This document shows positions 33,763-47,352 of a stretch of DNA of 64,000 nt, piece by piece (within the stretch, counting starts at the first letter, position 1; each line of letters starts with the position of its first letter). Under the pieces are notes generated by a model. The model was not told the origin of the DNA, made no database searches, and saw only the letters and a program-made list of their open reading frames with translations. A program made the translations under genes and the position numbers. The stretch spans positions 1,152,001-1,216,000 of the forward strand of contig OZ220691.1 of the NCBI GenBank assembly GCA_965116475.1, given 5' to 3'. The DNA is from Gemmatimonadota bacterium. Its GTDB lineage: Bacteria > Gemmatimonadota > Gemmatimonadetes > Palauibacterales > Palauibacteraceae.

Positions 33763-34635
33763 CTATCCGCCCCGGACCTGGAACGTGAGCGTGGCCCAGT
33801 TCGACTCGTAGTCGATATCCGCTTCCGACGGCGTCTCGACCATGTGAATCGTCCGGATGTACCACCGACCCCCGCCGACGAGCGGGATCGTCGCGACGCC
33901 ATCGCCGTTCGTGCGAACCTCGACCGCCTCGTTGTGTGCACCGGTATCGTCGTGCGAATGGGGGTTGAATTCGTAGTTCGCGTAGAGGAGCGCGTCCTCG
34001 ACCGGTTCGCCCGCGCGCAGGAAGCGCACATCGAGTTCGTCGCCGACGACGAGATCGTACGGATTCCGGAGCGGGATGATCTCCACCGGATAGCCGAGTT
34101 CCGTCGCCCACTCATCGCTCCGGTCGTCGCCTACCTGGACGATCGCCTTCACGTGTTTGCTGTAGCGCTCGGCCGCGTCGTCGTTCGACTTCCCGGCCGC
34201 CTCGCGCTCGGCGAGCTCGTCGACGAGGCCCTCGTGGACCAGGTATTCGTTGAACTCCGCCCCCGTGAGCGGGATCACGCGCGCCGCCGTCGACACGCCG
34301 ATCGTGTAGGTCCCGGCCGAGCCCGTCTCGAAGGTCAGCAGCGCGGTGTCGACGCTGTCCGCGTGCCAGTGGAACATCGCCGTATCGCGCCACGCCTCCG
34401 TGGGCGGGTGCACGACGCCATCCGGTCCCACGATGCTCACGTCGAGCATCCGGTCGCGCGTGATGTGGTTCTCGCTCTCGTCGAAGTCTCCGTTGAAGAG
34501 CGCAACGATGTTCGTGGAGTTCGGCTCGAGGAAGAAGCTCTCGAGCTTCAGGAACATCGTGTGCGCCCGCGCCGTCGCGACGATGGCGACGGTGAGCAGG
34601 CCAGTCGTAAGCAGGACGCGGCGTCCGATCTTCAT
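33763..34635 (-). CDS. DUF4198 (NikM-like, putative Ni/Co-binding) exported protein
   Basis: Signal ending ARA-H; FNEYLVHEGL, ERYSKHVKA, EIIPLRNPY, YESNWATLTF motifs. Confidence 0.82.
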   Translation of the reverse strand: MKIGRRVLLTTGLLTVAIVATARAHTMFLKLESFFLEPNSTNIVALFNGDFDESENHITRDRMLDVSIVGPDGVVHPPTEAWRDTAMFHWHADSVDTALLTFETGSAGTYTIGVSTAARVIPLTGAEFNEYLVHEGLVDELAEREAAGKSNDDAAERYSKHVKAIVQVGDDRSDEWATELGYPVEIIPLRNPYDLVVGDELDVRFLRAGEPVEDALLYANYEFNPHSHDDTGAHNEAVEVRTNGDGVATIPLVGGGRWYIRTIHMVETPSEADIDYESNWATLTFQVRGG

Positions 34636-35467: not shown

Positions 35468-36916
35468 TTGTCGCACGCCGTGACACAAACCGCTGCACGA
35501 GCCGGCGGGGGGCTTCTCCTCGCCGGCCTGCTCCTGTCGTCGTGCTCGCCCGGTTCCGACGCGGGCGACACAGTCTCGGAAGGCGGCCGGCTCCTGATCG
35601 ACGGTGGCACGGTCGTCGTCATGGACGAGGCGGGCACCGTCCTCGAGCGCGGTGCGGTACTCGTGGAGGGGGACCGGATCTCCGCCGTCCTCGACGGTGA
35701 CGCTCCCCGCCCCGCCGGCGTGCCGGTACTCGACGCGACGGGGCACCTCGTGATCCCCGGCCTCGTGAACACGCACGGCCACGCCGCCATGTCGCTCCTC
35801 CGAGGCCTCGCGGACGACATGCCGCTGATGACCTGGCTGAACGAGCACATCTTCCCCGCCGAGGCCGAACTGGTCGATTCCGAGTTCGTCTACTGGGGCA
35901 CGCTGCTCTCGTCCATCGAGATGCTGAAGAGCGGGACGACGACGTTCGCGGACATGTACTACTTCCGGGATGACGCGGCGCGCGCGGTCGTCGATGCGGG
36001 CATCCGGGCCGTCATGGGCCCGCACGTCATCGGCTTCCCCGCCCCGGACTTCGCCTCGCCGGCGGCGACGCTGGCCGACGCGGCCGGGTTCATGGAGACG
36101 TATCGCGACCACCCCACGCTGGTTCCCGGAACGGCCGCCCACTCGCTGTACACGACATCCCTCGACGACGCGCGAGCCGCGCTGCGCTTGGCCCTCGACC
36201 ACGATGCTCCGTTTCAGATCCACACGGCCGAGGACGCGAGCGAGTTCGCGACGGCGACGGAACGGACCGGGATGGGCGTGGTGGAGGCGCTCGAGTCCAT
36301 CGGCGCGCTCCGCCCGGGGACGGTGCTCGCCCACGCCATCTACCTTTCGGACGAGGACATCGAACGCATCGCGGCCGGGGGCGCGGGGGTCTCGCACAAC
36401 CCGCAGAGCAACCTCAAGCTGGGCATCCCGCAGGCGGCGCCGGTCGTGAGACTGCTCGCCGCGGGGATCCCCGTAGGGCTGGGAACCGACGGCCCGGCGA
36501 GCAACAACGACCTTGACCTGTTCGACGAGATGGACGCCGCCGCCAAGCTCCACAAGTTCACCAACGCCGACCCCACCGCGCTGCCGGCCGAGACCGTCTT
36601 CCGCATGGCCACAATGGGCGGCGCCCGCGTGCTCAACCTTCACGACCGCATCGGCTCGCTCGAGCCGGGAAAGCGCGCCGACATCGTGCTGCTCGACACC
36701 CGGCGCGCCGGACTCACACCCCTCTACAACGTCTATTCCCACCTCGTATACGCGGCGCGGGGGAGCGACGTCTCCACGGTCCTCGTGAACGGACGCGTCG
36801 TCGTCAGCGACGGTGAGGTGCTTACGGTGGACGAGGCGGAGGTCATGGGACGGGCACATACCTTCCGCGACCGGGTGCGGGCGGTCATCGCGCGGGTGGC
36901 CGAGGAGGCGCGATAA
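35468..36916 (+). CDS. MTA/SAH deaminase-like amidohydrolase with lipoprotein signal
   Basis: NTHGH, EMLKSGTT, HTAE, HNPQSNLKL, GTDGPASNN motifs; lipobox LSSC. Confidence 0.85.
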   Translation: MSHAVTQTAARAGGGLLLAGLLLSSCSPGSDAGDTVSEGGRLLIDGGTVVVMDEAGTVLERGAVLVEGDRISAVLDGDAPRPAGVPVLDATGHLVIPGLVNTHGHAAMSLLRGLADDMPLMTWLNEHIFPAEAELVDSEFVYWGTLLSSIEMLKSGTTTFADMYYFRDDAARAVVDAGIRAVMGPHVIGFPAPDFASPAATLADAAGFMETYRDHPTLVPGTAAHSLYTTSLDDARAALRLALDHDAPFQIHTAEDASEFATATERTGMGVVEALESIGALRPGTVLAHAIYLSDEDIERIAAGGAGVSHNPQSNLKLGIPQAAPVVRLLAAGIPVGLGTDGPASNNDLDLFDEMDAAAKLHKFTNADPTALPAETVFRMATMGGARVLNLHDRIGSLEPGKRADIVLLDTRRAGLTPLYNVYSHLVYAARGSDVSTVLVNGRVVVSDGEVLTVDEAEVMGRAHTFRDRVRAVIARVAEEAR

Positions 36917-36965: not shown

Positions 36966-37586
36966 CTACGCTCCGCTCGCGTGTCCCGGCTGCGGCGGCG
37001 GCTCCCAGCCCGTCGCGGCGCGGCGCTCCTGCACGCAGCGCTTGAAGCGGAAGGCGTTCTCGGGCAGGGCGAAGTCCATCCCGTAATTGTCGGGACCCAC
37101 GGCGTCGACGCGCGCCACGATCACGCCGAGGTCGTCCCGCTCCATCGCCTCGACGAACGCTTCCCCGAACGCCATCGGCGAGTCCACGGCCACCGCGTGC
37201 TCGATCCCGGCCCCGCGCGCGATCGCGGCGAGGTCCGTGACGCCGGACGTGGTGTGCGACTCGAACCCTCCCGTCGAGAGGAGGCTCCCGTTGTCGAAGA
37301 TGATGTGGAGGAGGTTGCGGGGCCGGTAGCGCGCGAGCGTGGTGAAGGTGCCGAGGTTCATCAGCGCCGATCCGTCCCCGTCCAGCACGATCACCTTCTC
37401 GTGCGGCAGGTGGCTCGCGAGGCCGAGGCCGATCGACGAGGCGAGCCCCATCGCGTGCTGCAGGTAGAAGAAGTTCTCGCGGTGCCCAAGATCGTACAGC
37501 TCCTGGGCGCAGGCCCCCATAATCGTGACGACCAGCTTGTCCTCGATCTCGGGATAGATCAGCTCCAGGCAGTCCGCCCGCCGCAT
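36966..37586 (-). CDS. comE: Sulfopyruvate/phosphonopyruvate decarboxylase beta subunit-like (ThDP-binding)
   Basis: MGLASSIGLG; ThDP motif DGDGS...DN; STGG. Confidence 0.75.
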   Translation of the reverse strand: MRRADCLELIYPEIEDKLVVTIMGACAQELYDLGHRENFFYLQHAMGLASSIGLGLASHLPHEKVIVLDGDGSALMNLGTFTTLARYRPRNLLHIIFDNGSLLSTGGFESHTTSGVTDLAAIARGAGIEHAVAVDSPMAFGEAFVEAMERDDLGVIVARVDAVGPDNYGMDFALPENAFRFKRCVQERRAATGWEPPPQPGHASGA

Positions 37587-37623
37587 CAGGCCTCCATTTC
37601 CGGGCCGGATCCGCCGTCCCGCA

Positions 37624-38133
37624 TCACACCTCCATGAGGTCGCGCGTCAGCAGCAGCGCGACCGGCGAGAGCGAGCTCTGCGACAGCGTGTACGCCTCGG
37701 CGATCTCCTTCGCGACGAGCGCCGGATCTCTCGCGTGGTGGTAGGGGATGTTGAGCGCCTGAAGCAGACCCTCCGTCACGATCCCGCCACGCGTGTGCCA
37801 CGGGTACGGCTCGCCCCAGTGGCCCCGGACCGCGATGAGCATGCAGAGCGGGACGGAGTAGAGCTGGGCGAGGGAGATGATCCCGTTCATCGCCGCGAAG
37901 AAGCCGTGGTTCTGCATGAGCAGGATGTGCGGCTCGCCGGCGAAGTACGCCCCCGCCGCGACGCCGACCGCCTCCTCCTCCTTGGCGACCTGGATGAGAT
38001 CGACCTCGGGATCAACCTCGGCGCGCTGCAGGAGGAGGCCGAGCCAGGTCTCCGGCAGGGCGGAGATGCTGCGGATGCCGGCGGCCTTGATCCCGTCGAA
38101 CACGGCCTTCGAGTTCTCGTAGGAGACGGTCAT
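37624..38133 (-). CDS. comD: Sulfopyruvate decarboxylase alpha subunit-like
   Basis: LPETWL, KEEEAVGVAAGAY, LMQNHG and RG motifs; directly upstream of the comE-like gene. Confidence 0.75.
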   Translation of the reverse strand: MTVSYENSKAVFDGIKAAGIRSISALPETWLGLLLQRAEVDPEVDLIQVAKEEEAVGVAAGAYFAGEPHILLMQNHGFFAAMNGIISLAQLYSVPLCMLIAVRGHWGEPYPWHTRGGIVTEGLLQALNIPYHHARDPALVAKEIAEAYTLSQSSLSPVALLLTRDLMEV

Positions 38134-38262
38134 GGGCCGAAGGGTGCGCGGACGGCTCGGGCCGCGCAATCCCGCCCGCGCGGCGACCCGTCGCGCCAAA
38201 ACGGCGGGCAGGTTGCGCCACACAGCGGCCCGTGAACACCATGGACGCAACAAGGAGTGCGT

Positions 38263-39048
38263 ATGGACGAATCGGAAGGGCGGCCGGTCGACCGGCGCGG
38301 ATTCATCAAGGATGCGGCCGTGGGTGCGGCCGCGTTCGCCGCCCCGGGGAAGCTGATGGCCGAGCAGCCGGAGTCTCACGGGCACGACCACGGACACGGG
38401 CACGACCACGATCACGATCACGATCACGATCACGACCATCAGGACGTGCCGCCGGACATCGCGCTCCGGGTGCGGGCGCTGGAATCCGTCCTCGTGGAGA
38501 AGGGGATGGTGGATTCGGCGGCGCTGGACGAGATCGTCGACACGTACGAGAACCGGATCGGGCCGCGGAACGGGGCCGAGGTGGTCGCGCGCGCGTGGGT
38601 CGATCCCGCGTACCGCGAGCGCCTCCTCGCGGATGGGACCGCGGCGATCGGCGAACTCGGCTATCTGGGCGGCCAGGGCGAGCACATGAAGGTGGTGGCG
38701 AACACTCCGGACGTGCACAACCTCGTCGTCTGCACCCTGTGCTCGTGCTACCCGTGGCCGACGCTGGGCCTGCCCCCCGTGTGGTACAAGTCCGCCCCCT
38801 TCCGCGCGCGGGCGGTCATCGAGCCGCGCGCCGTCCTGAGCGAGTTCGGCCTCGACGTGCCCGAGGATGTCGAAATCCGCGTCTGGGACAGCACGGCGGA
38901 GATCCGTTATCTCGTGCTCCCGGAGCGGCCCGCCGGCACCGAGGAGATGAGCGAAGAGGAACTGGCGGGAATCGTCAGCCGCGACTCGATGATCGGCGTG
39001 GCCCGGGTCGAGGCGCCATCCGGAGGCGCGTCGGGAGGCGACCAGTGA
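38263..39048 (+). CDS. nthA: Cobalt-type nitrile hydratase alpha subunit with twin-arginine signal and His-rich tract
   Basis: VCTLCSCY metal site (38731-38751), [39 protein letters not shown] at 38290-38310; His tract at 38377-38439. Confidence 0.95.
38377..38439 (+). repeat. CAC-GAY/GGR microsatellite encoding [21 protein letters not shown]
   Basis: 21 codons, 11 His, within nthA. Confidence 0.95.
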
Positions 39049-39701
39049 ATACGATCCACGACATGGGCGGCATGGACGGCTTCGGCCCGATCGAACCCGA
39101 GAAGAACGAACCCGTCTTCCACCACCGCTGGGAAGGCCGTGTGTACGCGCTCACCAGGGCGGTCGGCCCGTGGGGCCGGGGGCGCGAGTGGCCCTCCTTC
39201 CGCTACACGCTCGAGAGTATCCCGCCGGTCGAGTACCTGAGCATGTCCTACTACGAGCGCTGGTTCCGGATGATGACGACCCGGCTGCTCGTGAGCGGCC
39301 TCATCTCCGAGACCGAACTGGAGACGGGCTACCCGGATCCCGGCGCGCCGCGGCCGGAGCTTCTCCCGCCTTCGAACACCGGTGCGCTCGGGGCCGGGCT
39401 CCTCGACATGGACGTGCCCGCCCGGTTCTCACCGGACGACCGCGTGCGCGCGCGCAACCTCCACCCGCGCGGCCACACCCGGCAGCCCCGCTACGTCCGC
39501 GGACGACAGGGAACCGTGGTCGAGGACCACGGCGTGTACGCGCTGCAGGACACGGACGGGGACGGACGCCGCCCGCCCGACCGCCGTCCGCAGCACGTCT
39601 ACTCGGTGCGCTTCGAGGCGCGGGAACTGTGGGGCGAGCGGGCCGCCGCGGGCGACGCGATCTACGCCGACCTGTGGGAAGACTACCTGGAGCCGGCGTG
39701 A
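39045..39701 (+). CDS. nthB: Nitrile hydratase beta subunit
   Basis: [49 protein letters not shown] overlap with nthA. Confidence 0.93.
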
Positions 39702-40093
39702 TGGCCGGGACCGAGCGGGACAGGACCGAACGCGTCGACGCGGAACGCCTCGCGGCGCTCCCTCCCCTGCCCGCCGATGAGGAGGGCCCGGTGTTCGAGG
39801 CCCCGTGGCAGGCGCAGGCCTTCGCGCTGGCCGTGAAGCTCTCCGAGGAAGGTCACTTCACCTGGAAGGAGTGGGCCGGGACGCTCGCCGACGAACTCGC
39901 CGAGGCGGAGGCGCGCGGAGAGCCGGACGACGGCACCCGGTACTACCACCACTGGGTCGCCGCCCTCGAACGGCTCGTCGTCGACCGCCGCCTGAGCACC
40001 TCCGCCGCTCTCGACCATCGCAAGGACGCCTGGGCGGACGCCTACCGCCACACCCCCCATGGCCAACCCGTGGAGTTGCGCCGGACAGACTGA
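39701..40093 (+). CDS. Nitrile hydratase accessory protein (P14K-like, beta-homologous)
   Basis: PVFEAPWQAQAFA, FTWKEW, YYHHWVAALE, TPHGQPVEL motifs. Confidence 0.9.
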   Translation: MAGTERDRTERVDAERLAALPPLPADEEGPVFEAPWQAQAFALAVKLSEEGHFTWKEWAGTLADELAEAEARGEPDDGTRYYHHWVAALERLVVDRRLSTSAALDHRKDAWADAYRHTPHGQPVELRRTD

Positions 40094-40137: not shown

Positions 40138-41547
40138 CTACCGCCGCCAGACCCCGACGCCGTTCTCGTACGTGATCTCCGTCCCGTAGGGGCGCGACAG
40201 TTCGGCCAGGTGCTCGATGATCCTGCGGCCCAGTTCCTCGGGCGCGATGCGCGGCGTGCCTCGCCTGCCGCGCGGCGCCTTCCAGCTGAGTTCGATCGGG
40301 TGGAAGATGATCTCGACCACCTCTTCGCCGTCGAAGGTCGCGACCGGAACCACGCTCTCGTACCACTCGGAGCCGATGGGGAAGCCCGTCGTGGGGTTGC
40401 CGTCCTCGTCCACCTGGAAGCGCGTGTCGTAGATCTCCGACGCGAGCCGGTCGAGCGGAATCCCGTAGCGGTCGCGCTGGTCGGAGGGCATGGGGTCGAT
40501 CGTCTCGTTCTGGAAGATGAAGTTCGCGAGCGAGTAGAAGATCGGCCGTCCCCTGTAGATCTCCACGCCGCGGAGCTGGTGCGGCCCGTGGATGATGAAC
40601 GTCTCCGCCCCCGCATCGATCGTCTGCCGCGCGAACTCCTCCATCCACGCCGGCGCCGTCACGAACGCGTTGCCGGGCTCGTGCGAATGGCTGTTCACGA
40701 CGACGTAGTCGGCCTGATCCGTGGCGTTCCGCACCTCGTGCAGGACCCGTTCCCGGTCCTCTTCGTTGAGCGACACGGTCGCGCGGTCCTCATCCCCCGG
40801 GAACACGGTGGAACCGAACACGCGGACGTGCGCGTCGGGGTCGTCGGGCACGTCCGCTCCCTGCCGGCGCGCCACCTCCCGCAGCGCGGTCATCGTCTCC
40901 GGCGACCCCTCGTAGCGCGTGCTCAGCCGCAGCGGGTTCAGCCCCGGGCGTCCCTGCACGGTCGGCCCGGTCTTCCCGGCGCGGGACATCGGCGTGAAGG
41001 TGGACGCCATCCCGATGAGCGCGATCCGGCCCTTCGGCGTCTCCAGGTAGCCGGGGCGGCTGGCCCAGCCGAGGTTTTCGCCGGTCCCCGAGTGGATGAG
41101 GCCCCACTCGTCCATCAGCCGGTTCGTGAGGCGCATGCCCTCGACCCCGTAGTCCGTCGAGTGGTTGTTCGCCCGGTTGTAGAGGTTGAACCCCATGTCC
41201 ACGAGGTCCTTCAGCGTCTCGGGCGAGCCCACCTCGTAGTTGCCGCCGTTCTCGGCCGCCGGCCAGCCGGTGAACTCCTGCAGCCGGAAGACCGACTGCT
41301 CGAGGTTCAGGAAGGCGGCATCCGTCGCCCGGATGATGTTGGCGAGGTCGTGAAAACCCGGGTCGCCGGGGTGATCGAACGGCGCCGTGCGACGATTCAT
41401 GATCACATCCCCCACGGCGGACAGCGTCCACCGGGTCTCGGCGTCGATCGGCGAAAGGCTCTGCGCCTCCGCATCGGACCAGCCAGCGGGCGCAAAGGCG
41501 GTGAGGGATAGAACGAAGCAGAGAGCGAGACGAGCGGGGCGGCGCAT
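40138..41547 (-). CDS. CapA-family metallophosphoesterase-like exported protein
   Basis: VGD, NLE, ANNHSTDYG, HSH, HGPH, IFYSLANFIF motifs; signal peptide. Confidence 0.88.
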   Translation of the reverse strand: MRRPARLALCFVLSLTAFAPAGWSDAEAQSLSPIDAETRWTLSAVGDVIMNRRTAPFDHPGDPGFHDLANIIRATDAAFLNLEQSVFRLQEFTGWPAAENGGNYEVGSPETLKDLVDMGFNLYNRANNHSTDYGVEGMRLTNRLMDEWGLIHSGTGENLGWASRPGYLETPKGRIALIGMASTFTPMSRAGKTGPTVQGRPGLNPLRLSTRYEGSPETMTALREVARRQGADVPDDPDAHVRVFGSTVFPGDEDRATVSLNEEDRERVLHEVRNATDQADYVVVNSHSHEPGNAFVTAPAWMEEFARQTIDAGAETFIIHGPHQLRGVEIYRGRPIFYSLANFIFQNETIDPMPSDQRDRYGIPLDRLASEIYDTRFQVDEDGNPTTGFPIGSEWYESVVPVATFDGEEVVEIIFHPIELSWKAPRGRRGTPRIAPEELGRRIIEHLAELSRPYGTEITYENGVGVWRR

Positions 41548-41729
41548 AAGGGTCCTCCTGGTGACGTGCCGGGGCATCCATGCCTCTCGCCAACGTACGG
41601 AAAGCACCGATACGCGCGCATGCGGTGGCGGCCCGCAGAATGCTGCGAACGGAACAGCCGTGCTGCGCGAGTACTTCCCGGCGGCGGACGCGGCGTGTCG
41701 TGGATCACGCCATGACGAATCATTATTAT

Positions 41730-41785
41730 GCGTCGTATACGGCGTGTTATATGCGTATGTGCCGCAAACGCGCCATATGTTGCGT
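41730..41785. promoter_or_regulatory. Two imperfect palindromes in the AT-richer region upstream of the hipB-like gene (candidate operators)
   Basis: GCGTCGTATACGGCGT (41730-41745) and ACGCGCCATATGTTGCGT (41768-41785). Confidence 0.45.
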
Positions 41786-41888
41786 AATGGACGCAGACGC
41801 GCTCTGTGCCTAGATTGGCTTCGTTCGAGCGCCACGGACACAGGTCGCGCTTGGCCATCGACCACGAATCGGACTGGAGCGCCCGCAA

Positions 41889-42215
41889 ATGGGAACCATC
41901 GTCGCCACGAGCCGCACACCGGAGGTGATGCGGGAACTGGGCGCGCGGCTCAAGGCGTTGCGCCTCCGCCAGAACGTCCGCGTGAAGGATCTGGCCGCCC
42001 GTTCCGGCGTCGGAGCCCGAACGATCGACCGCCTGGAGGCCGGGCACAGCGTGGGCACCGACACGCTGGTGCGGATCATGCGCGGCCTTGGGCGACTCCA
42101 GGCGTTCGAGGCCCTTATCCCGCCTGTGGAGCCATCCCCCTATGAGATTGAGCAACTGAAGGGCAAGCTGCGCCAGCGTGCGTCCGGACGACCACCGCCG
42201 GAGCCGGCTTCGTGA
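41889..42215 (+). CDS. XRE-family HTH antitoxin (HipB-like)
   Basis: LKALRLRQNVRVKDLAARSGVGARTIDRLEAG HTH; overlaps the hipA start. Confidence 0.85.
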   Translation: MGTIVATSRTPEVMRELGARLKALRLRQNVRVKDLAARSGVGARTIDRLEAGHSVGTDTLVRIMRGLGRLQAFEALIPPVEPSPYEIEQLKGKLRQRASGRPPPEPAS

Positions 42216-43507
42216 ACGGGTACTCAACGGTCCGCGTACAACTGAGGGGACGCGATGTCGGTCTCCTCCTCGAGTCCGAGCGAGGCGCCCGGATTACGTT
42301 CGAATACGACCCCGGATTCGCGGACTCGGGACTCGAGATTTCCCCGATCCATTTGCCGCTGGTTCGTTCCGGGCCGGTCTCCTTCCCCGAACTCGCCGGC
42401 AGGCCCGCCTTCCTGGGACTCCCTGGCGTGTTCGCCGATGCGCTGCCGGACCGTTTCGGCAACGCCGTGATCCGGCGCTATTTCGAGGCACGGGGACGCC
42501 CCGAGGACGCATTGTCGCCACTCCAGCGGTTGCTCTACGTGGGAGAGCGCGCGATGGGCGCGCTGGAGTTTCTCCCTCCGCACGATCCCGGCCCAGGCAC
42601 CGAGGAGGCGCTGGAAGTGCAGGTGCTCGTCGACCAGGCGCGACGGGTCATCGACGGGGATGTCTCGATCGCGGTGCCGGAGATGATGCAGGTGGGAGGG
42701 AGCGCGGGCGGTGCCCGACCCAAGGCGCTGATTCTATGGGACCGTGAGACCGGACGCGTGCGATCGGGCTTCGCCAATCCGGATGCCGACGAAGAACTGT
42801 GGCTCATCAAGTTCGATGGCGTGAGTCGCGACGCTTCCGGGCTGGGCATGCACGCCCACCGGCACCCCGGTCCCTGGGGTCGCGTCGAATACGCCTATTC
42901 CCGCATGGCACGAGACGCCGGGATCCGGATGGCGAAGACCCACCTGCTGCGCGACGGCGATCTGGCCCACTTCATGACGCGGCGCTTCGACCGCACGGAT
43001 GTCGGACGACTCCACCTGCACAGCCTCGGCGGCCTGCAGCACATCGACTTCAACGACCAGTTCGTGTTCAGCTACGAAGGCTGGTTCGACACGATCCGCA
43101 CCCTGGAGATGGGGCAGGCTTCGGTGAACGAGGCGTTCCGGCGCATGGTGTTCAACGTGGCGACGGTCAACTTCGACGACCACGTCAAGAACTTCGCGTT
43201 TCTCATGGATCGCGCCGGCCGCTGGCAGCTGGCGCCCGCCTACGACCTGACCTACGCGGAGAACGACGCCTGGACGCGCCAGCACCAGATGTCGGTCAAC
43301 GGGCGTTTCCGCGACATCAAGCGGGCGGATCTGCTGCGGGTGGGACGCACGTTCGACGTACCGGCCGCCGGAAGACGCATCATCGAGCAGGTGATGGAGG
43401 CGCTGGACGGCTGGTCGAGCTACGCCGATGCGGCAGGCGTCCCCGAGGACATGGCGGCCTTCCTCGAGGGCCGCTTCGAGCGGGAGATCGGCGTCAGCCG
43501 ATCATGA
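42212..43507 (+). CDS. hipA: HipA-family Ser/Thr kinase toxin
   Basis: N-terminal couple_hipA-like FEYD..F, DALPDRFG; GGARPKA, IKFD, RRFDR, NFDDHVKNF, LAPAYD motifs. Confidence 0.92.
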   Translation: MNGYSTVRVQLRGRDVGLLLESERGARITFEYDPGFADSGLEISPIHLPLVRSGPVSFPELAGRPAFLGLPGVFADALPDRFGNAVIRRYFEARGRPEDALSPLQRLLYVGERAMGALEFLPPHDPGPGTEEALEVQVLVDQARRVIDGDVSIAVPEMMQVGGSAGGARPKALILWDRETGRVRSGFANPDADEELWLIKFDGVSRDASGLGMHAHRHPGPWGRVEYAYSRMARDAGIRMAKTHLLRDGDLAHFMTRRFDRTDVGRLHLHSLGGLQHIDFNDQFVFSYEGWFDTIRTLEMGQASVNEAFRRMVFNVATVNFDDHVKNFAFLMDRAGRWQLAPAYDLTYAENDAWTRQHQMSVNGRFRDIKRADLLRVGRTFDVPAAGRRIIEQVMEALDGWSSYADAAGVPEDMAAFLEGRFEREIGVSRS

Positions 43508-45649
43508 CGAGGGGGCGGCGGCGCGGGCGCGGTCGAGGAGGGCCTGGTAGCGGGCGTCGGCCTCCTGCACGCGCGGTTCGAGGCGGAGGCGCTGCTGCTC
43601 CCATTCCTCCTCGAGGAGACGGGTCGTCTCCCAGTATTCGAGATCGCCGGCGGGCCGGATGGGCTCGGTGAGCAGTTCCTGGAGCTTGGCGCGGTGGCGG
43701 GCGACGAGTTCGGGCACGGCCTCCAGCTTCCACCAGGGATCGTCCTCCACGACGACGAACACGGGGGCGCTGTGCGCGACCGTCATGTCCCGCGCCCCGT
43801 CGCGGTCGCCGAAGGCGCGGACGGCGACCCACAGGCTCTCGTCCGCCTCGATCTCCGTTTCGAGCCGCAGCCGGTCGCTGGCCGCGGACGTCCGGGTCGC
43901 GGTGGCGACGACCTCGCCGTGGACGACGAGTTCCAGCCGGTTCAGGCGGTCGATGTCGGGGTTCAGTGACGCCTCCGCCACGATCTCGAGGCTCTGCCCG
44001 CGCTCGGCACGAAGCTCGGAGCCCATCTCCCGCCCGTTCACGCGGAACTCGAGGAAGGGCCCGTTGCTCACGTAGGTGTGGCCGGAACGGTAGGCGTTGT
44101 ACCACTCGTTCGGGGCGAACGGCCCGTCCAGCTTCACGTACGTGCGCTCGACGCCCGGCAGCGTGGGGCCGAAGTACGGATAGTCGGCGCCCGCGATGGG
44201 GCGGACATTGAAGCCGAGGTTGAGGAAGCTGTACCAGATGTCGTCGTACAGGCGGCCGCCCTGCAGGACCTCGATGAAGTCGACGAGGTCGAACGGCACG
44301 TCGAGCGCCAGCCCCCGCTCGCCGTTGAAGAGTTGGCCCATGTGCGCGTAGCCGGAGATCCCGCCCTGGGCGCGCGATTCCTCGAACACCCGGTGATAGA
44401 GGAAGTAGGATTCCGGGTCCGGACGGATGGGACGCTGCAGGTTGTGGTGGATCGTGTGTCCGCGCTGGACGGTACGCGGGTCCTCCTGCCCGGACACGAG
44501 CGCGTGGCCTTCGCGCACGTACTGTCCGGCCTCCCCCCACGCCGGCTGCTTGAAGTGCGTGACGGCGATGTTCCCCATCTCGAGCAGGTTCGCGACGTGG
44601 ATGTCCTCGGCGGCGATCTGCGCCCACACGGCGTCGTCCTCGGTGTGCTCGCGCGCGATGTGCACGTGCGAATCGCCGGAGTACCAGCCCTCGGCGGGGA
44701 GGTCCGCGTAGCGCTCGAGCGAGACCGTGAGATCGGTCGTCTCATCCGCCCGCACCTCGATGGTCCGCCGGTAGCCGCGGTATTCGGGGCCCCGCGTCGC
44801 GACGAGTTCGTAGCTCCCGACGGGGAGGCGGGCCTCGTAATCGCCGTCAACGTAGAAGGCGAGGCGGTGCTCGGAGGGCCACCACGTGCGCGGGTTCACC
44901 CACAGGAGGCGCACCTCGTCGACGAAGCGGTGCACGAGGACGGAGCGCTCGGAGGGTAGCGGAGCGCGGCCCGTCTCGTCGTAGAGACCGAACCGGGCGG
45001 GGACCGGGCGCCCGCTCGCCGCATCCTCGACCGCCAGGCGCAGCGTGCCGTGGCCGGCCGGGACGGGCGTGGCGTGGCTCCGCACGACCTCGATGTCGCA
45101 CAGGGCGATCCCCTCCGGGCCGCCGATGGCGAGGTCCGTGTCGCGGATTCCGTGCGCGGCGAACCTGGCGCGTTCGAGCCTCACGCGTGCGGTGGCGAAG
45201 GTCGAGCCTGACGCGGGGCCGGATCCCGGGCCGGCTGCCGGTCCGATGGTGGCGGACTCGCCGATCCCGTCGCCGCCGTTGTCGTTGAACCCCACGCTGA
45301 ACGGGCCCGTGAGTTCCGGCGCGTAGGTGACCACGAGGTCGACGGGCTCATCGATGTCGAACGCGAACCCGTCGTCGATGTCGAGCGCGAAGAGGGGGCC
45401 GACGACGCACGTCCGGTCGCCGATGTCGCGCGTCTGGAACGGGTTGCCGCGGCCGTACATGCCGAGTTCCGAGCGGGCGACGCCGAGCGTGCGAGCGATG
45501 TTCTCGCGCGGCCACTCGAGTTCGACGACGAACCGGGCCTCGCTGCCGTGCGCCGGAGAAGGCGCGCCCTCCCCCGCCGGTCCCGCGGCTCCCGAGACGA
45601 GAAGGCCGGCCCCGGCGAGCAGGCAGATCCGGCGGGCGCGGGCGGTCAC
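43502..45649 (-). CDS. CehA/McbA-family (PHP-like) metallohydrolase, exported
   Basis: RGPEY, GWYSGDSHVH, GYAH, WY..LNLG, GAD, RTYV, SNGP, AHSAPV motifs. Confidence 0.78.
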   Translation of the reverse strand: MTARARRICLLAGAGLLVSGAAGPAGEGAPSPAHGSEARFVVELEWPRENIARTLGVARSELGMYGRGNPFQTRDIGDRTCVVGPLFALDIDDGFAFDIDEPVDLVVTYAPELTGPFSVGFNDNGGDGIGESATIGPAAGPGSGPASGSTFATARVRLERARFAAHGIRDTDLAIGGPEGIALCDIEVVRSHATPVPAGHGTLRLAVEDAASGRPVPARFGLYDETGRAPLPSERSVLVHRFVDEVRLLWVNPRTWWPSEHRLAFYVDGDYEARLPVGSYELVATRGPEYRGYRRTIEVRADETTDLTVSLERYADLPAEGWYSGDSHVHIAREHTEDDAVWAQIAAEDIHVANLLEMGNIAVTHFKQPAWGEAGQYVREGHALVSGQEDPRTVQRGHTIHHNLQRPIRPDPESYFLYHRVFEESRAQGGISGYAHMGQLFNGERGLALDVPFDLVDFIEVLQGGRLYDDIWYSFLNLGFNVRPIAGADYPYFGPTLPGVERTYVKLDGPFAPNEWYNAYRSGHTYVSNGPFLEFRVNGREMGSELRAERGQSLEIVAEASLNPDIDRLNRLELVVHGEVVATATRTSAASDRLRLETEIEADESLWVAVRAFGDRDGARDMTVAHSAPVFVVVEDDPWWKLEAVPELVARHRAKLQELLTEPIRPAGDLEYWETTRLLEEEWEQQRLRLEPRVQEADARYQALLDRARAAAPSS

Positions 45650-47352
45650 CGCTCGTACACGATCCGGCCGCCCACCACGGTCAGGTCGACTTCCATCGAT
45701 TCCAGGCATGGATCCTCGCACTCCAGCACATGGTCCGCCGTCACGACGAGGTCGGCGGCCATCCCGACCTCGAGCGTTCCCTTCTCTTCTTCTTCGAAGG
45801 TGAGGTGCGCGTACGCGCTGGTCGCCGCGCGCAGCGCCTCCTCGCGGCTGATCGCCTGGGCCGGATCCAGCACCCCGGCGCTGATCGTGCCGCGCGTCGT
45901 GAAGTGGTGCAGCATCCACCACGGGTCCCAGGGGACGACGGGGGAGTCCGTGCCCAGCGACACCGGGATCCCGGCGTCGAGGTAGGCGCGCACGGGCGTG
46001 GTCCAGGCGGCGCGCTCCGCCCCCCAGTACTTCACGAGGCTCGGCGCCGCCACGTAGAGGTGGTTCTGCGCGGTCACGGAGAGGCCCAGCGCCCGCATGC
46101 GCGGGAAGTGGTCGTCTCGCGGGATGAATCCGTGTTCGACGACCCAGCGCAGGCCGTCGATCGGCGCATCGGCGTGCGCGGCCTCGTAGCCGTCCAGGAC
46201 GAGGTCGATGGCGGCGTCGCCCACCGCGTGCGTCGCCACCCGCCAGCCCTGCCGGTGAAGTTCGCGGACGGTCTCGATGAAGCGCTCCGTCGGCACGGTC
46301 TGCAGGCCGTGGAAGGTGCCGCCCTCGCCCCACGGTTCCTCGTACGGCTCGCGCATGAGGCCGCCCTCGAAGCCGCCGTCCACGCCGAGCTTCACGCCCC
46401 CGACGCGGAGCCAGTCGTCGCCCTCGCCCATGGCGGGCCAGGTGGCGAGCGCGTCGGCGAGGGGCGGCGCCCCGGCGCCGCGCGGGGCGCGGAGGACGTA
46501 GTTCACGCGCAGGGTGAGCCGGCTCTGGTCCCTGAGGCGCTCGATTGCGCGGTATTGCTCCGGGGGGCCGCCGGGGTAGCGGATGCTCGTCAGTCCGCGG
46601 GCGTTGAGCGCGGCGTACTCCGCGGCCAGCGCGTCGAGGACGGCCGCGGGGTCGGGCGGCGCGGCGGCCGGCAGCGCCACGAGATCCTTGGCGCGATCGA
46701 CGAGTTCGCCGTTCAGCCGCCCGTCCGGGTAGCGTCCGATGCGGCCGCCCGGCACCTCCGGCGTCGATTCGTCGATGCCCCAGCGCGCGAGCGCCGCGCT
46801 GTTCAGCACGTACTCGTGCCCGCCGCGGACGACGACGACCGGCTGCCCGGGCGCCGCGCCGTCGAGATCGTCACGGTAGGGCAGGCGGTGCTCGGCGAGC
46901 TGCCCCTCGTGCCAGTCGCGGTTCGTGACGATCAGCTCGCCCGGCGCCGTCTCGAGCGCGACGGCGGCGATCGCGTCGATCACGTCCGCCATCGATCGCG
47001 CGCCCGTCAGGTCGACGCCCGGGCCGCCCCCGATGCCGTGGTAGTGGTTGTCCGTGAGCCCGGGGATCACGGTCCGCCCGTCCAACTCCACGACGCGCGT
47101 GCCGGGCCCGGCCAGCCCGCGAATCTCATCCGACGTCCCTACCGCCAGCACCCGGCCGTCGCTCACCGCCAGCGCTTCCACGACGCCCGCAGCCCCGAGC
47201 GTGAGCACATCTCCGTCGACCAGCACGAGATCCGCCGCCTCGCGCGGGGGCGCCGCGCAGGCCGCGAGCCCCAGCAGCAGCACGAACCCCGGCGCCGCCA
47301 GCCCGAGGTCCTGCCGCGTCGAGACGGCCCGCGCAGGCCCGGTCTTCCTCAT
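45646..47352 (-). CDS. Amidohydrolase 3 (YtcJ-like) lipoprotein
   Basis: PGLTDNHYH, DGG, HAVGDAA, EHG, GTD, GTLEVGMAAD motifs; lipobox LAAC. Confidence 0.88.
   Translation of the reverse strand: MRKTGPARAVSTRQDLGLAAPGFVLLLGLAACAAPPREAADLVLVDGDVLTLGAAGVVEALAVSDGRVLAVGTSDEIRGLAGPGTRVVELDGRTVIPGLTDNHYHGIGGGPGVDLTGARSMADVIDAIAAVALETAPGELIVTNRDWHEGQLAEHRLPYRDDLDGAAPGQPVVVVRGGHEYVLNSAALARWGIDESTPEVPGGRIGRYPDGRLNGELVDRAKDLVALPAAAPPDPAAVLDALAAEYAALNARGLTSIRYPGGPPEQYRAIERLRDQSRLTLRVNYVLRAPRGAGAPPLADALATWPAMGEGDDWLRVGGVKLGVDGGFEGGLMREPYEEPWGEGGTFHGLQTVPTERFIETVRELHRQGWRVATHAVGDAAIDLVLDGYEAAHADAPIDGLRWVVEHGFIPRDDHFPRMRALGLSVTAQNHLYVAAPSLVKYWGAERAAWTTPVRAYLDAGIPVSLGTDSPVVPWDPWWMLHHFTTRGTISAGVLDPAQAISREEALRAATSAYAHLTFEEEEKGTLEVGMAADLVVTADHVLECEDPCLESMEVDLTVVGGRIVYER

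Follow-up and report, generated by a model that had tools for sequence, protein, structure and literature searches.

A candidate Tat signal on the alpha subunit of a cobalt-type nitrile hydratase from a Gemmatimonadota bacterium

Where does a nitrile hydratase (NHase) work when its alpha subunit begins with a twin-arginine segment? The question is raised by an operon in a 64,000-nucleotide stretch of a Gemmatimonadota genome (contig OZ220691.1, positions 1,152,001 to 1,216,000 of the forward strand; this whole stretch is called the window, and positions are counted from its first letter). NHases have been studied, and are used industrially, as cytoplasmic enzymes. An earlier reading of the letters of the window, here called the sequence-only reading, had proposed that this enzyme is exported by the twin-arginine translocation (Tat) system. 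With a probability of about 0.7, we conclude that the signal-bearing alpha subunit, NthA, belongs to an NHase that would be assembled in the cytoplasm and exported folded by Tat, with the beta subunit as a hitchhiker. New in this analysis are a selection test at the level of the genus, a control with hidden Markov models (HMMs) and the context of exported-looking amidases.

Three tightly packed genes on the + strand, nthA, nthB and an NHase accessory gene, fill positions 38263-40093. The features that matter for the argument are the following.

38252..38257, + strand: Shine-Dalgarno-like AAGGAG, read from the sequence, with a 5-nucleotide spacer to the nthA ATG
38263..39048, + strand: nthA, Co-type nitrile hydratase alpha subunit precursor, 261 aa (TIGR01323, Pfam NHase_alpha)
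38263..38361, + strand: predicted Tat signal peptide, aa 1-33, with a 16-residue n-region, a 12-residue h-region, the c-region K-LMA and a possible cut before E34
38290..38310, + strand: twin-arginine motif D10-R-R-G-F-I-K16 (DRRGFIK), followed below for the conservation of R11/R12
38377..38439, + strand: His/Asp/Gly tract, aa 39-59, with 11 His, read from the translation
38728..38751, + strand: metal-site motif VCTLCSCY, aa 156-163, invariant in two alignments, one of them that of the motif-bearing sequences
39045..39701, + strand: nthB, beta subunit, 218 aa, GTG start, with a GTGA overlap with the nthA stop (TIGR03888)
39701..40093, + strand: NHase accessory (activator) protein, 130 aa, with an ATGA overlap with nthB (TIGR03889)

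The N-terminal extension and its conservation

NthA carries an N-terminal extension of 59 residues that comprises a Tat-type signal, an Ala-rich h-region, the stretch K-LMA/EQ and a His/Asp tract; between the h-region and the tract the c-region sequence runs K-LMA-EQPES. The sequence-only reading had reported a near-consensus RR motif and an Ala-rich h-region ahead of the NthA core, and this description holds: the translation is identical, and the general Tat-signal model TIGR01409 matches aa 9-27 with 20.5 bits, over its cut-off of 16.7. The h-region consists of 12 uncharged, Ala-rich residues with a mean Kyte-Doolittle value of 1.43. In an AlphaFold2 run with a 20-sequence alignment, the predicted local distance difference test score is below 50 for nearly all of aa 1-59, with a lone helix at 11-26, which places the extension outside the fold.

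In mature alpha, the His/Asp tract would stand at the N-terminal end. Its coding sequence is a (GAC/CAC)n-like repeat that differs in length between the 22 orthologues of the genus, and read mapping handled 38375-38445 as a repeat. The tract is also found in 55 homologues without a signal, where it is often longer (up to 23 histidines, against 3-14 in the Tat-type forms). On this sequence comparison, the tract is taken to be ancestral to the NHase subfamily.

To follow the segment among close relatives, 145 genomes of the window's order were searched for NHase alpha. The gene was found only in the window's genus, in 21 of its 35 other species, and in none of the 109 genomes of the other 31 genera. 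The same ATG and the RR pair are kept in all 22 genus sequences (window included), and this conservation of R11/R12 argues that the motif is no chance match. Among these sequences, the ratio of nonsynonymous to synonymous substitution rates (dN/dS, Nei-Gojobori) is 0.17 for codons 2-34 and 0.15 for codons 10-34; by comparison, the core gives 0.10, the His tract 0.19 and the C-terminal tail 0.70. These results show that the signal-coding stretch evolves as protein under purifying selection. A downstream start, named earlier as an outcome that would refute export, is not borne out, given the Shine-Dalgarno sequence at the upstream ATG, the 22 shared starts and the dN/dS of 0.17.

Beyond the genus, we compared the 120 best homologues, which are 62-96% identical to NthA, and took as motif RRx[FVL][LIMV] within the first 40 residues. 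This motif is present in 65 of the 120, and in all 65 an uncharged stretch of at least 10 residues follows. R11 and R12 are invariant across 66 motif-bearing sequences, an alignment that was itself selected by the motif. A scan of both groups with HMMs served as a control independent of the regular expression: among the 66 motif-bearing sequences, TIGR01409 matched 41, TIGR02811 45 and TIGR04401 8, while the NCBIfam scan gave no match of a Tat model to any of the 55 motif-free sequences. On a quick maximum-likelihood tree of the core only (P0018 excluded), the Tat label requires 5 changes, at least 2 of them forced by well-supported branches; shuffled labels require 39.5 on average, and none of 500 shuffles was as low as 5. 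The Tat-type forms make up three large clades, with 18, 32 and about 12 rows; the signal-less P0020 and P0035, which fall inside Tat clades, may be truncated, their contigs being about 1 kb long. Loss of the RR motif from orthologues had been the other outcome named as refuting; instead, RRxF is kept in 65 of the 120 closest homologues, across the three clades, and the RR pair in all genus sequences.

The signal also reaches beyond the phylum of the window, at least as genomes are labelled. Among 79 loci from species-representative genomes (three cut at a contig end, and one regular-expression match, L046, false), the full signal is present in eight: L004 (Gemmatimonadota), L011 (Alphaproteobacteria), L015 and L020 (Steroidobacteraceae, Gammaproteobacteria), L021, L029 and L062 (Acidobacteriota) and L051 (Chloroflexota). 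L004 is 93% identical to the window and syntenic with it. Species representatives with the motif are thus labelled as four phyla. L051 has its upstream genes (Polyketide_cyc, GGDEF) in common with L020, and the signal peptides of the two loci are near-identical, so that either the Chloroflexota label may come from a binning error or the locus was recently transferred. Of the representatives clustered at 50% identity, a Tat-like N-terminus is present in 8 among the best 150. One of the eight, P0267, looks chimeric or mistranslated, and many rows of this set are fragments, so that it gives breadth only.

A hint of expression comes from run X4, labelled as a metatranscriptome, in which contigs of a relative, 90-99% alike, cover the intergenic region, the nthA start and the signal-coding stretch. 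The three differences from the window listed there, at 38301, 38313 and 38334, are all third-position synonymous changes. As support for expression of the signal these contigs are weak, since DNA carry-over is possible. Positions 39286-39593 are uncovered by them, to which no meaning is attached.

The enzyme, its partners and the Tat machinery

The part of NthA that follows the extension had been described as a normal core with a Co-type site, and the profile searches agree. Alpha scores 315.7 bits against the equivalog TIGR01323 (cut-off 249.85), with Pfam NHase_alpha covering aa 66-247; beta scores 196.7 bits against TIGR03888 (cut-off 152.2), and the accessory protein 94.2 bits against TIGR03889 (cut-off 46), all in NCBIfam. 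The cobalt type is recognized by T and Y in the metal motif V-C-(T/S)-L-C-S-C-(Y/T), and NthA has VCTLCSCY at aa 156-163. The nearest solved alpha is that of the cobalt NHase of Pseudomonas putida NRRL-18668, which has the activator P14K (3QXE, 3QZ5); chain 3QXE_A aligns with aa 46-250 at E 4.4e-96. Because all three cut-offs are passed and 3QXE is the nearest solved chain, the enzyme part is, in predicted activity and metal, an ordinary cobalt-type nitrile hydratase.

The comparison with the P. putida enzyme also isolates what is different. The 17-residue metal-site stretch of 3QXE is identical to that of NthA, and 3QXE likewise has a short His-rich stretch before the core; the solved chains have 211 and 226 residues, and the alignment starts in their His-rich stretch. 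NthA has, compared with the P. putida alpha, 38 extra N-terminal residues, which form the Tat-type signal. We take the P. putida genes to have the same alpha-beta-accessory order as the window, and its alpha presumably has no RR segment, the enzyme being handled, as we understand it, as cytoplasmic. A further comparison is with the signal-less His-tract alphas, 55 of the 120 homologues, whose core is about 80% identical and which carry the same His/Asp tract before Q-x-V-P. They begin MHDHDH..., none of the 55 matches any Tat model, and they are interleaved with the Tat-type forms on the core tree. A counterpart of the tract is described in passages of PMC3323583, where fused NHases of opisthokonts have a His-rich stretch before the alpha domain.

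Two other identities were rejected. Thiocyanate hydrolase gamma (TIGR03887; PDB 2DD4) has a homologous fold and the same Cys-cluster metal site, but NthA reaches only 180.9 bits against TIGR03887, below the cut-off of 291.45, and a normal single beta gene is present. A precursor of a ribosomally synthesised and post-translationally modified peptide (RiPP) of the nitrile hydratase leader peptide (NHLP) type was rejected because NthA is an alpha subunit of full length that has the Cys cluster; TIGR03793 matches only at aa 179-236, from shared ancestry. A profile search of the window's own genome found no further NHase alpha gene, so that NthA is the sole one. Elsewhere in this genome, outside the window, the C-terminal part of NHase_alpha has two short matches, at C1:1087090-1087245 (+) and 1090783-1090947 (-), with 28.6 and 21.7 bits; these are probably NHLP-type RiPP leader peptides, not enzymes.

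Only alpha has a signal. Pfam NHase_beta_N starts at residue 2 of the window's beta, which therefore has no room for one, and of 11 further Tat-type loci, 8 have a beta whose domain begins at residue 1. The N-terminus of the accessory protein is a charged 16-residue stretch without a signal peptide. The sequence-only reading was thus correct in giving neither protein a signal. This is the arrangement of Tat hitchhiker complexes such as the [NiFe] hydrogenase small and large subunits and DmsAB, in which one subunit bears the RR signal and its partner has none; in the cytoplasm, maturation proteins of their own insert the cofactors, and the complex is exported once it has folded. Here, beta is the signal-less partner, and tight alpha-beta pairing is a property of the family, as seen in solved heteromers. 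The cargo itself differs, since known hitchhikers carry Ni-Fe, Fe-S or molybdopterin cofactors, while the window's NHase would carry a non-corrin cobalt centre with oxidised cysteines; to our knowledge, no such centre is known among the cargo of Tat. The NHase locus has no evident proofreading chaperone that would bind the signal.

The genome, a single 3.62-Mb contig with 69% G+C, encodes a Tat translocase, with TatC scoring 220.1 bits and the two TatA/B proteins 62.6 and 56.1. A crude scan for RRxF[LIMV] followed by at least 12 uncharged residues returned 45 open reading frames (ORFs) in the genome, many of them in the same 'DRRxF' style as NthA. One ORF of this genome outside the window (C1, starting at 1378079, - strand) has the Tat-like signal DRRKFLA with a His-rich HAHDHHHHH nearby.

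Export and the alternatives to it

Taking into consideration the signal on alpha, the signal-less partners and the Tat genes, we propose the following course of events. In the cytoplasm, the signal-less accessory protein would load cobalt into alpha, the active-site cysteines would be oxidised, and alpha would pair with signal-less beta. TatABC would then carry the folded alpha-beta complex across the inner membrane on the alpha signal, with beta as the hitchhiker. The signal would probably be cut after LMA33, leaving the His/Asp tract as a flexible mature N-terminus, and in the periplasm of this diderm Gemmatimonadota nitriles would be hydrated to amides, which the many exported-looking amidases encoded in the genome could split to give ammonium and acid. 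Export, cleavage, the hitchhiking of beta, the substrate and the physiological role, whether detoxification or scavenging, are what we infer from the comparisons above.

Several observations weigh against export. The uncharged h-region has only 12 residues and is preceded by K-D; TatFind requires an h-region of 13 or more, so the window's clade may be borderline in this respect. The cleavage site LMA/EQ was read by eye. In three other loci (L005, L006 and L013) RRxF[LI] is present with an h-region of only 8-9 residues, and at E <= 0.01 TIGR01409 finds no match in 25 of the 66 motif-bearing sequences. The other 55 of the 120 best homologues start directly with the His/Asp tract; export is therefore not essential to the NHase subfamily. 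No conserved amidase, transporter or Tat chaperone was found beside the Tat-type operons in a neighbour survey of 11 loci, which took ORFs of at least 100 aa passing a filter on third-position G+C content (140 of 405 ORFs), so that small or atypical genes are missed. Finally, the X4 contigs cannot show where a transcript starts.

Some of these points favour a reading in which the RR segment is no export signal and the enzyme stays in the cytoplasm, the segment being either a relic in decay or a handle used in maturation or quality control, for example to bind the accessory protein. The absence of the segment from 55 of the nearest homologues and the h-regions of 8-9 residues in some lineages would fit, as would the location of characterised NHases, all of them cytoplasmic as far as is known. 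Nevertheless, we consider this unlikely. A dN/dS of 0.17 is not that of a relic, nor would a relic retain RRxF[LI] and an uncharged stretch over three clades at 62-93% identity. The segment also matches generic Tat-signal HMMs that were built from unrelated exported proteins, and we know of no cytoplasmic role for a Tat-like segment outside Tat proofreading.

It is also rather improbable that the signal works but is left uncleaved, its helix holding the enzyme on the periplasmic face of the inner membrane. Uncleaved Tat signal anchors do exist, in Rieske proteins, and a short h-region followed by a long, flexible His/Asp linker would suit a tether. However, twelve Ala/Gly-rich residues with a mean Kyte-Doolittle value of 1.43 would be a weak membrane anchor, and by eye most clades have a small-x-small c-region (LMA, AHA, AAA etc.) before the His tract. 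A start at Met32 (ATG 38356), giving a signal-less cytoplasmic alpha or, with both starts in use, two locations, is very hard to credit: this ATG is in frame, stands shortly before the His tract, is shared by the 22 genus orthologues and has a weak GGGGAAG 3 nucleotides upstream, but the first ATG has the better Shine-Dalgarno sequence and spacing, the purifying selection on codons 2-34 excludes Met32 as the sole start, and other clades keep the RR segment without a Met at that position, a conservation that a sole downstream start cannot explain and that leaves room for a minor second start at most.

Tat-dependent export of the folded alpha-beta complex is thus the reading that we prefer, and the Tat-signal form is probably a variant of a known enzyme, NHase, with predicted export.

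Genomic setting and significance

If amides are formed in the periplasm, a partner enzyme might be expected there. The genome has 11 amidase-signature genes, nine of which look exported when their upstream frames are read by eye; five of the 11 N-termini are of the RR type, four are Sec- or lipoprotein-like and two are neither. In one RR-type amidase the c-region SLMA-APE resembles the KLMA-EQPE of NthA. Within the window, 35468-36916 (+) encodes a TRZ/ATZ-like amidohydrolase (Amidohydro_1, 231.8 bits; best NCBIfam match 413 bits, below the cut-off of 540) that is syntenic in L004; with a lipobox-like LLSSC at the end of its N-terminus, it is probably an exported lipoprotein. Given the exported-looking amidases and this amidohydrolase, it is plausible that the amide product meets a partner enzyme in the periplasm, but none of these genes has a link to the NHase operon.

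The remaining neighbours of the operon are diverse. At 36966-38133 (-), two adjacent genes encode the C- and N-terminal halves of a thiamine pyrophosphate-binding decarboxylase; they are divergent from nthA with a 129-bp spacer, syntenic in L004, and resemble sulfopyruvate or phosphonopyruvate decarboxylase below the equivalog cut-offs. A DUF4198 protein lies 3.6 kb upstream of nthA, at 33763-34635 (-), and also occurs in L004; DUF4198 is a family annotated as the periplasmic part of systems for Ni/Co uptake, and such a part would suit a supply of cobalt. Beside the operon, at 40138-41919 (-), is a signal-bearing CapA/PGA_cap protein, whose closest NCBIfam model is an MslH-like epimerase (237.6 bits, cut-off 700); in L004 the CapA-like gene is separated from the NHase operon by an inserted gene for a BNR/sortilin protein. 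Some 1.8 kb downstream of the operon, at 41889-43507 (+), a helix-turn-helix (HipB-like) gene overlaps a gene for a HipA-family kinase (HipA_C 161 bits, Couple_hipA 56.5 bits), a pair that looks like a type II toxin-antitoxin system. A 943-aa CehA/McbA-family metallohydrolase (185.6 bits) follows at 43502-46333 (-).

In the survey of 11 Tat-type loci, only alpha, beta and the accessory gene are shared. The other neighbours vary: a penicillin amidase in L021, a TRAP transporter in L020, MacB-like permeases in L015, PSD/PQQ/P460 proteins in L011 and a DsbA-like protein in L013. Since the neighbours differ between the loci, a pathway read from them was rejected. In the Acidobacteriota locus L021, the penicillin amidase (an Ntn hydrolase, 709.9 bits; L021:8001-11890) directly follows nthB, and no accessory gene was seen among ORFs of at least 100 aa.

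As to habitat, the three mapped runs with relatives (X3, X4 and X5) are labelled sponge metagenome, as are 12 of 20 run rows, among which rows with a small share are not evidence. A link to the aeroplysinin-1 NHase of the sponge Aplysina cavernicola was considered and has no support: in the passages of PMC3766881 that enzyme is soluble and Mn-stimulated, with peptides without homology to known NHases.

The sequence-only reading had been aware of no Tat-exported NHase, and the literature bears it out as far as it could be followed: no description of a Tat-signal, signal-bearing or exported NHase was found in full-text literature, which leaves subscription journals largely outside, so that this absence is no proof. 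Such an enzyme is not described in the passages of PMC6852473, PMC11928666, PMC11672702, PMC5744179, PMC6504805, PMC11316326, PMC12993501, PMC3323583 and PMC11812461 that were retrieved. In the retrieved passages of papers on thiocyanate, the Tat signals belong to thiocyanate dehydrogenase, and a 2020 NHase review uses none of six words for location, four of which are signal, periplasm, cytoplasm and secret.

A much wider claim can be framed, namely that an NHase branch in four labelled phyla lies outside the cytoplasm as a Tat-exported Co(III) alpha-beta enzyme, the first non-corrin cobalt cargo of Tat; that in the window's genus it joins exported amidases in a periplasmic nitrile-to-amide-to-ammonium pathway, which would disarm or harvest nitriles made by a host or by neighbours before they enter the cell; and that the accessory protein is its Tat proofreading chaperone, which would retain signal-bearing alpha until the cobalt is in place. 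Taken as a whole, this seems doubtful to us.

The predicted export alone, if true, would offer a natural route to periplasmic NHase biocatalysts whose substrate is spared the crossing of the inner membrane. The list of Tat cargo would gain a non-corrin cobalt enzyme with oxidised cysteine ligands, and with it the question of how export is delayed until subunit swapping has delivered the cobalt. For bacteria of soil and sea, an exported form would revise the accepted site at which nitriles are detoxified and nitrogen is scavenged.

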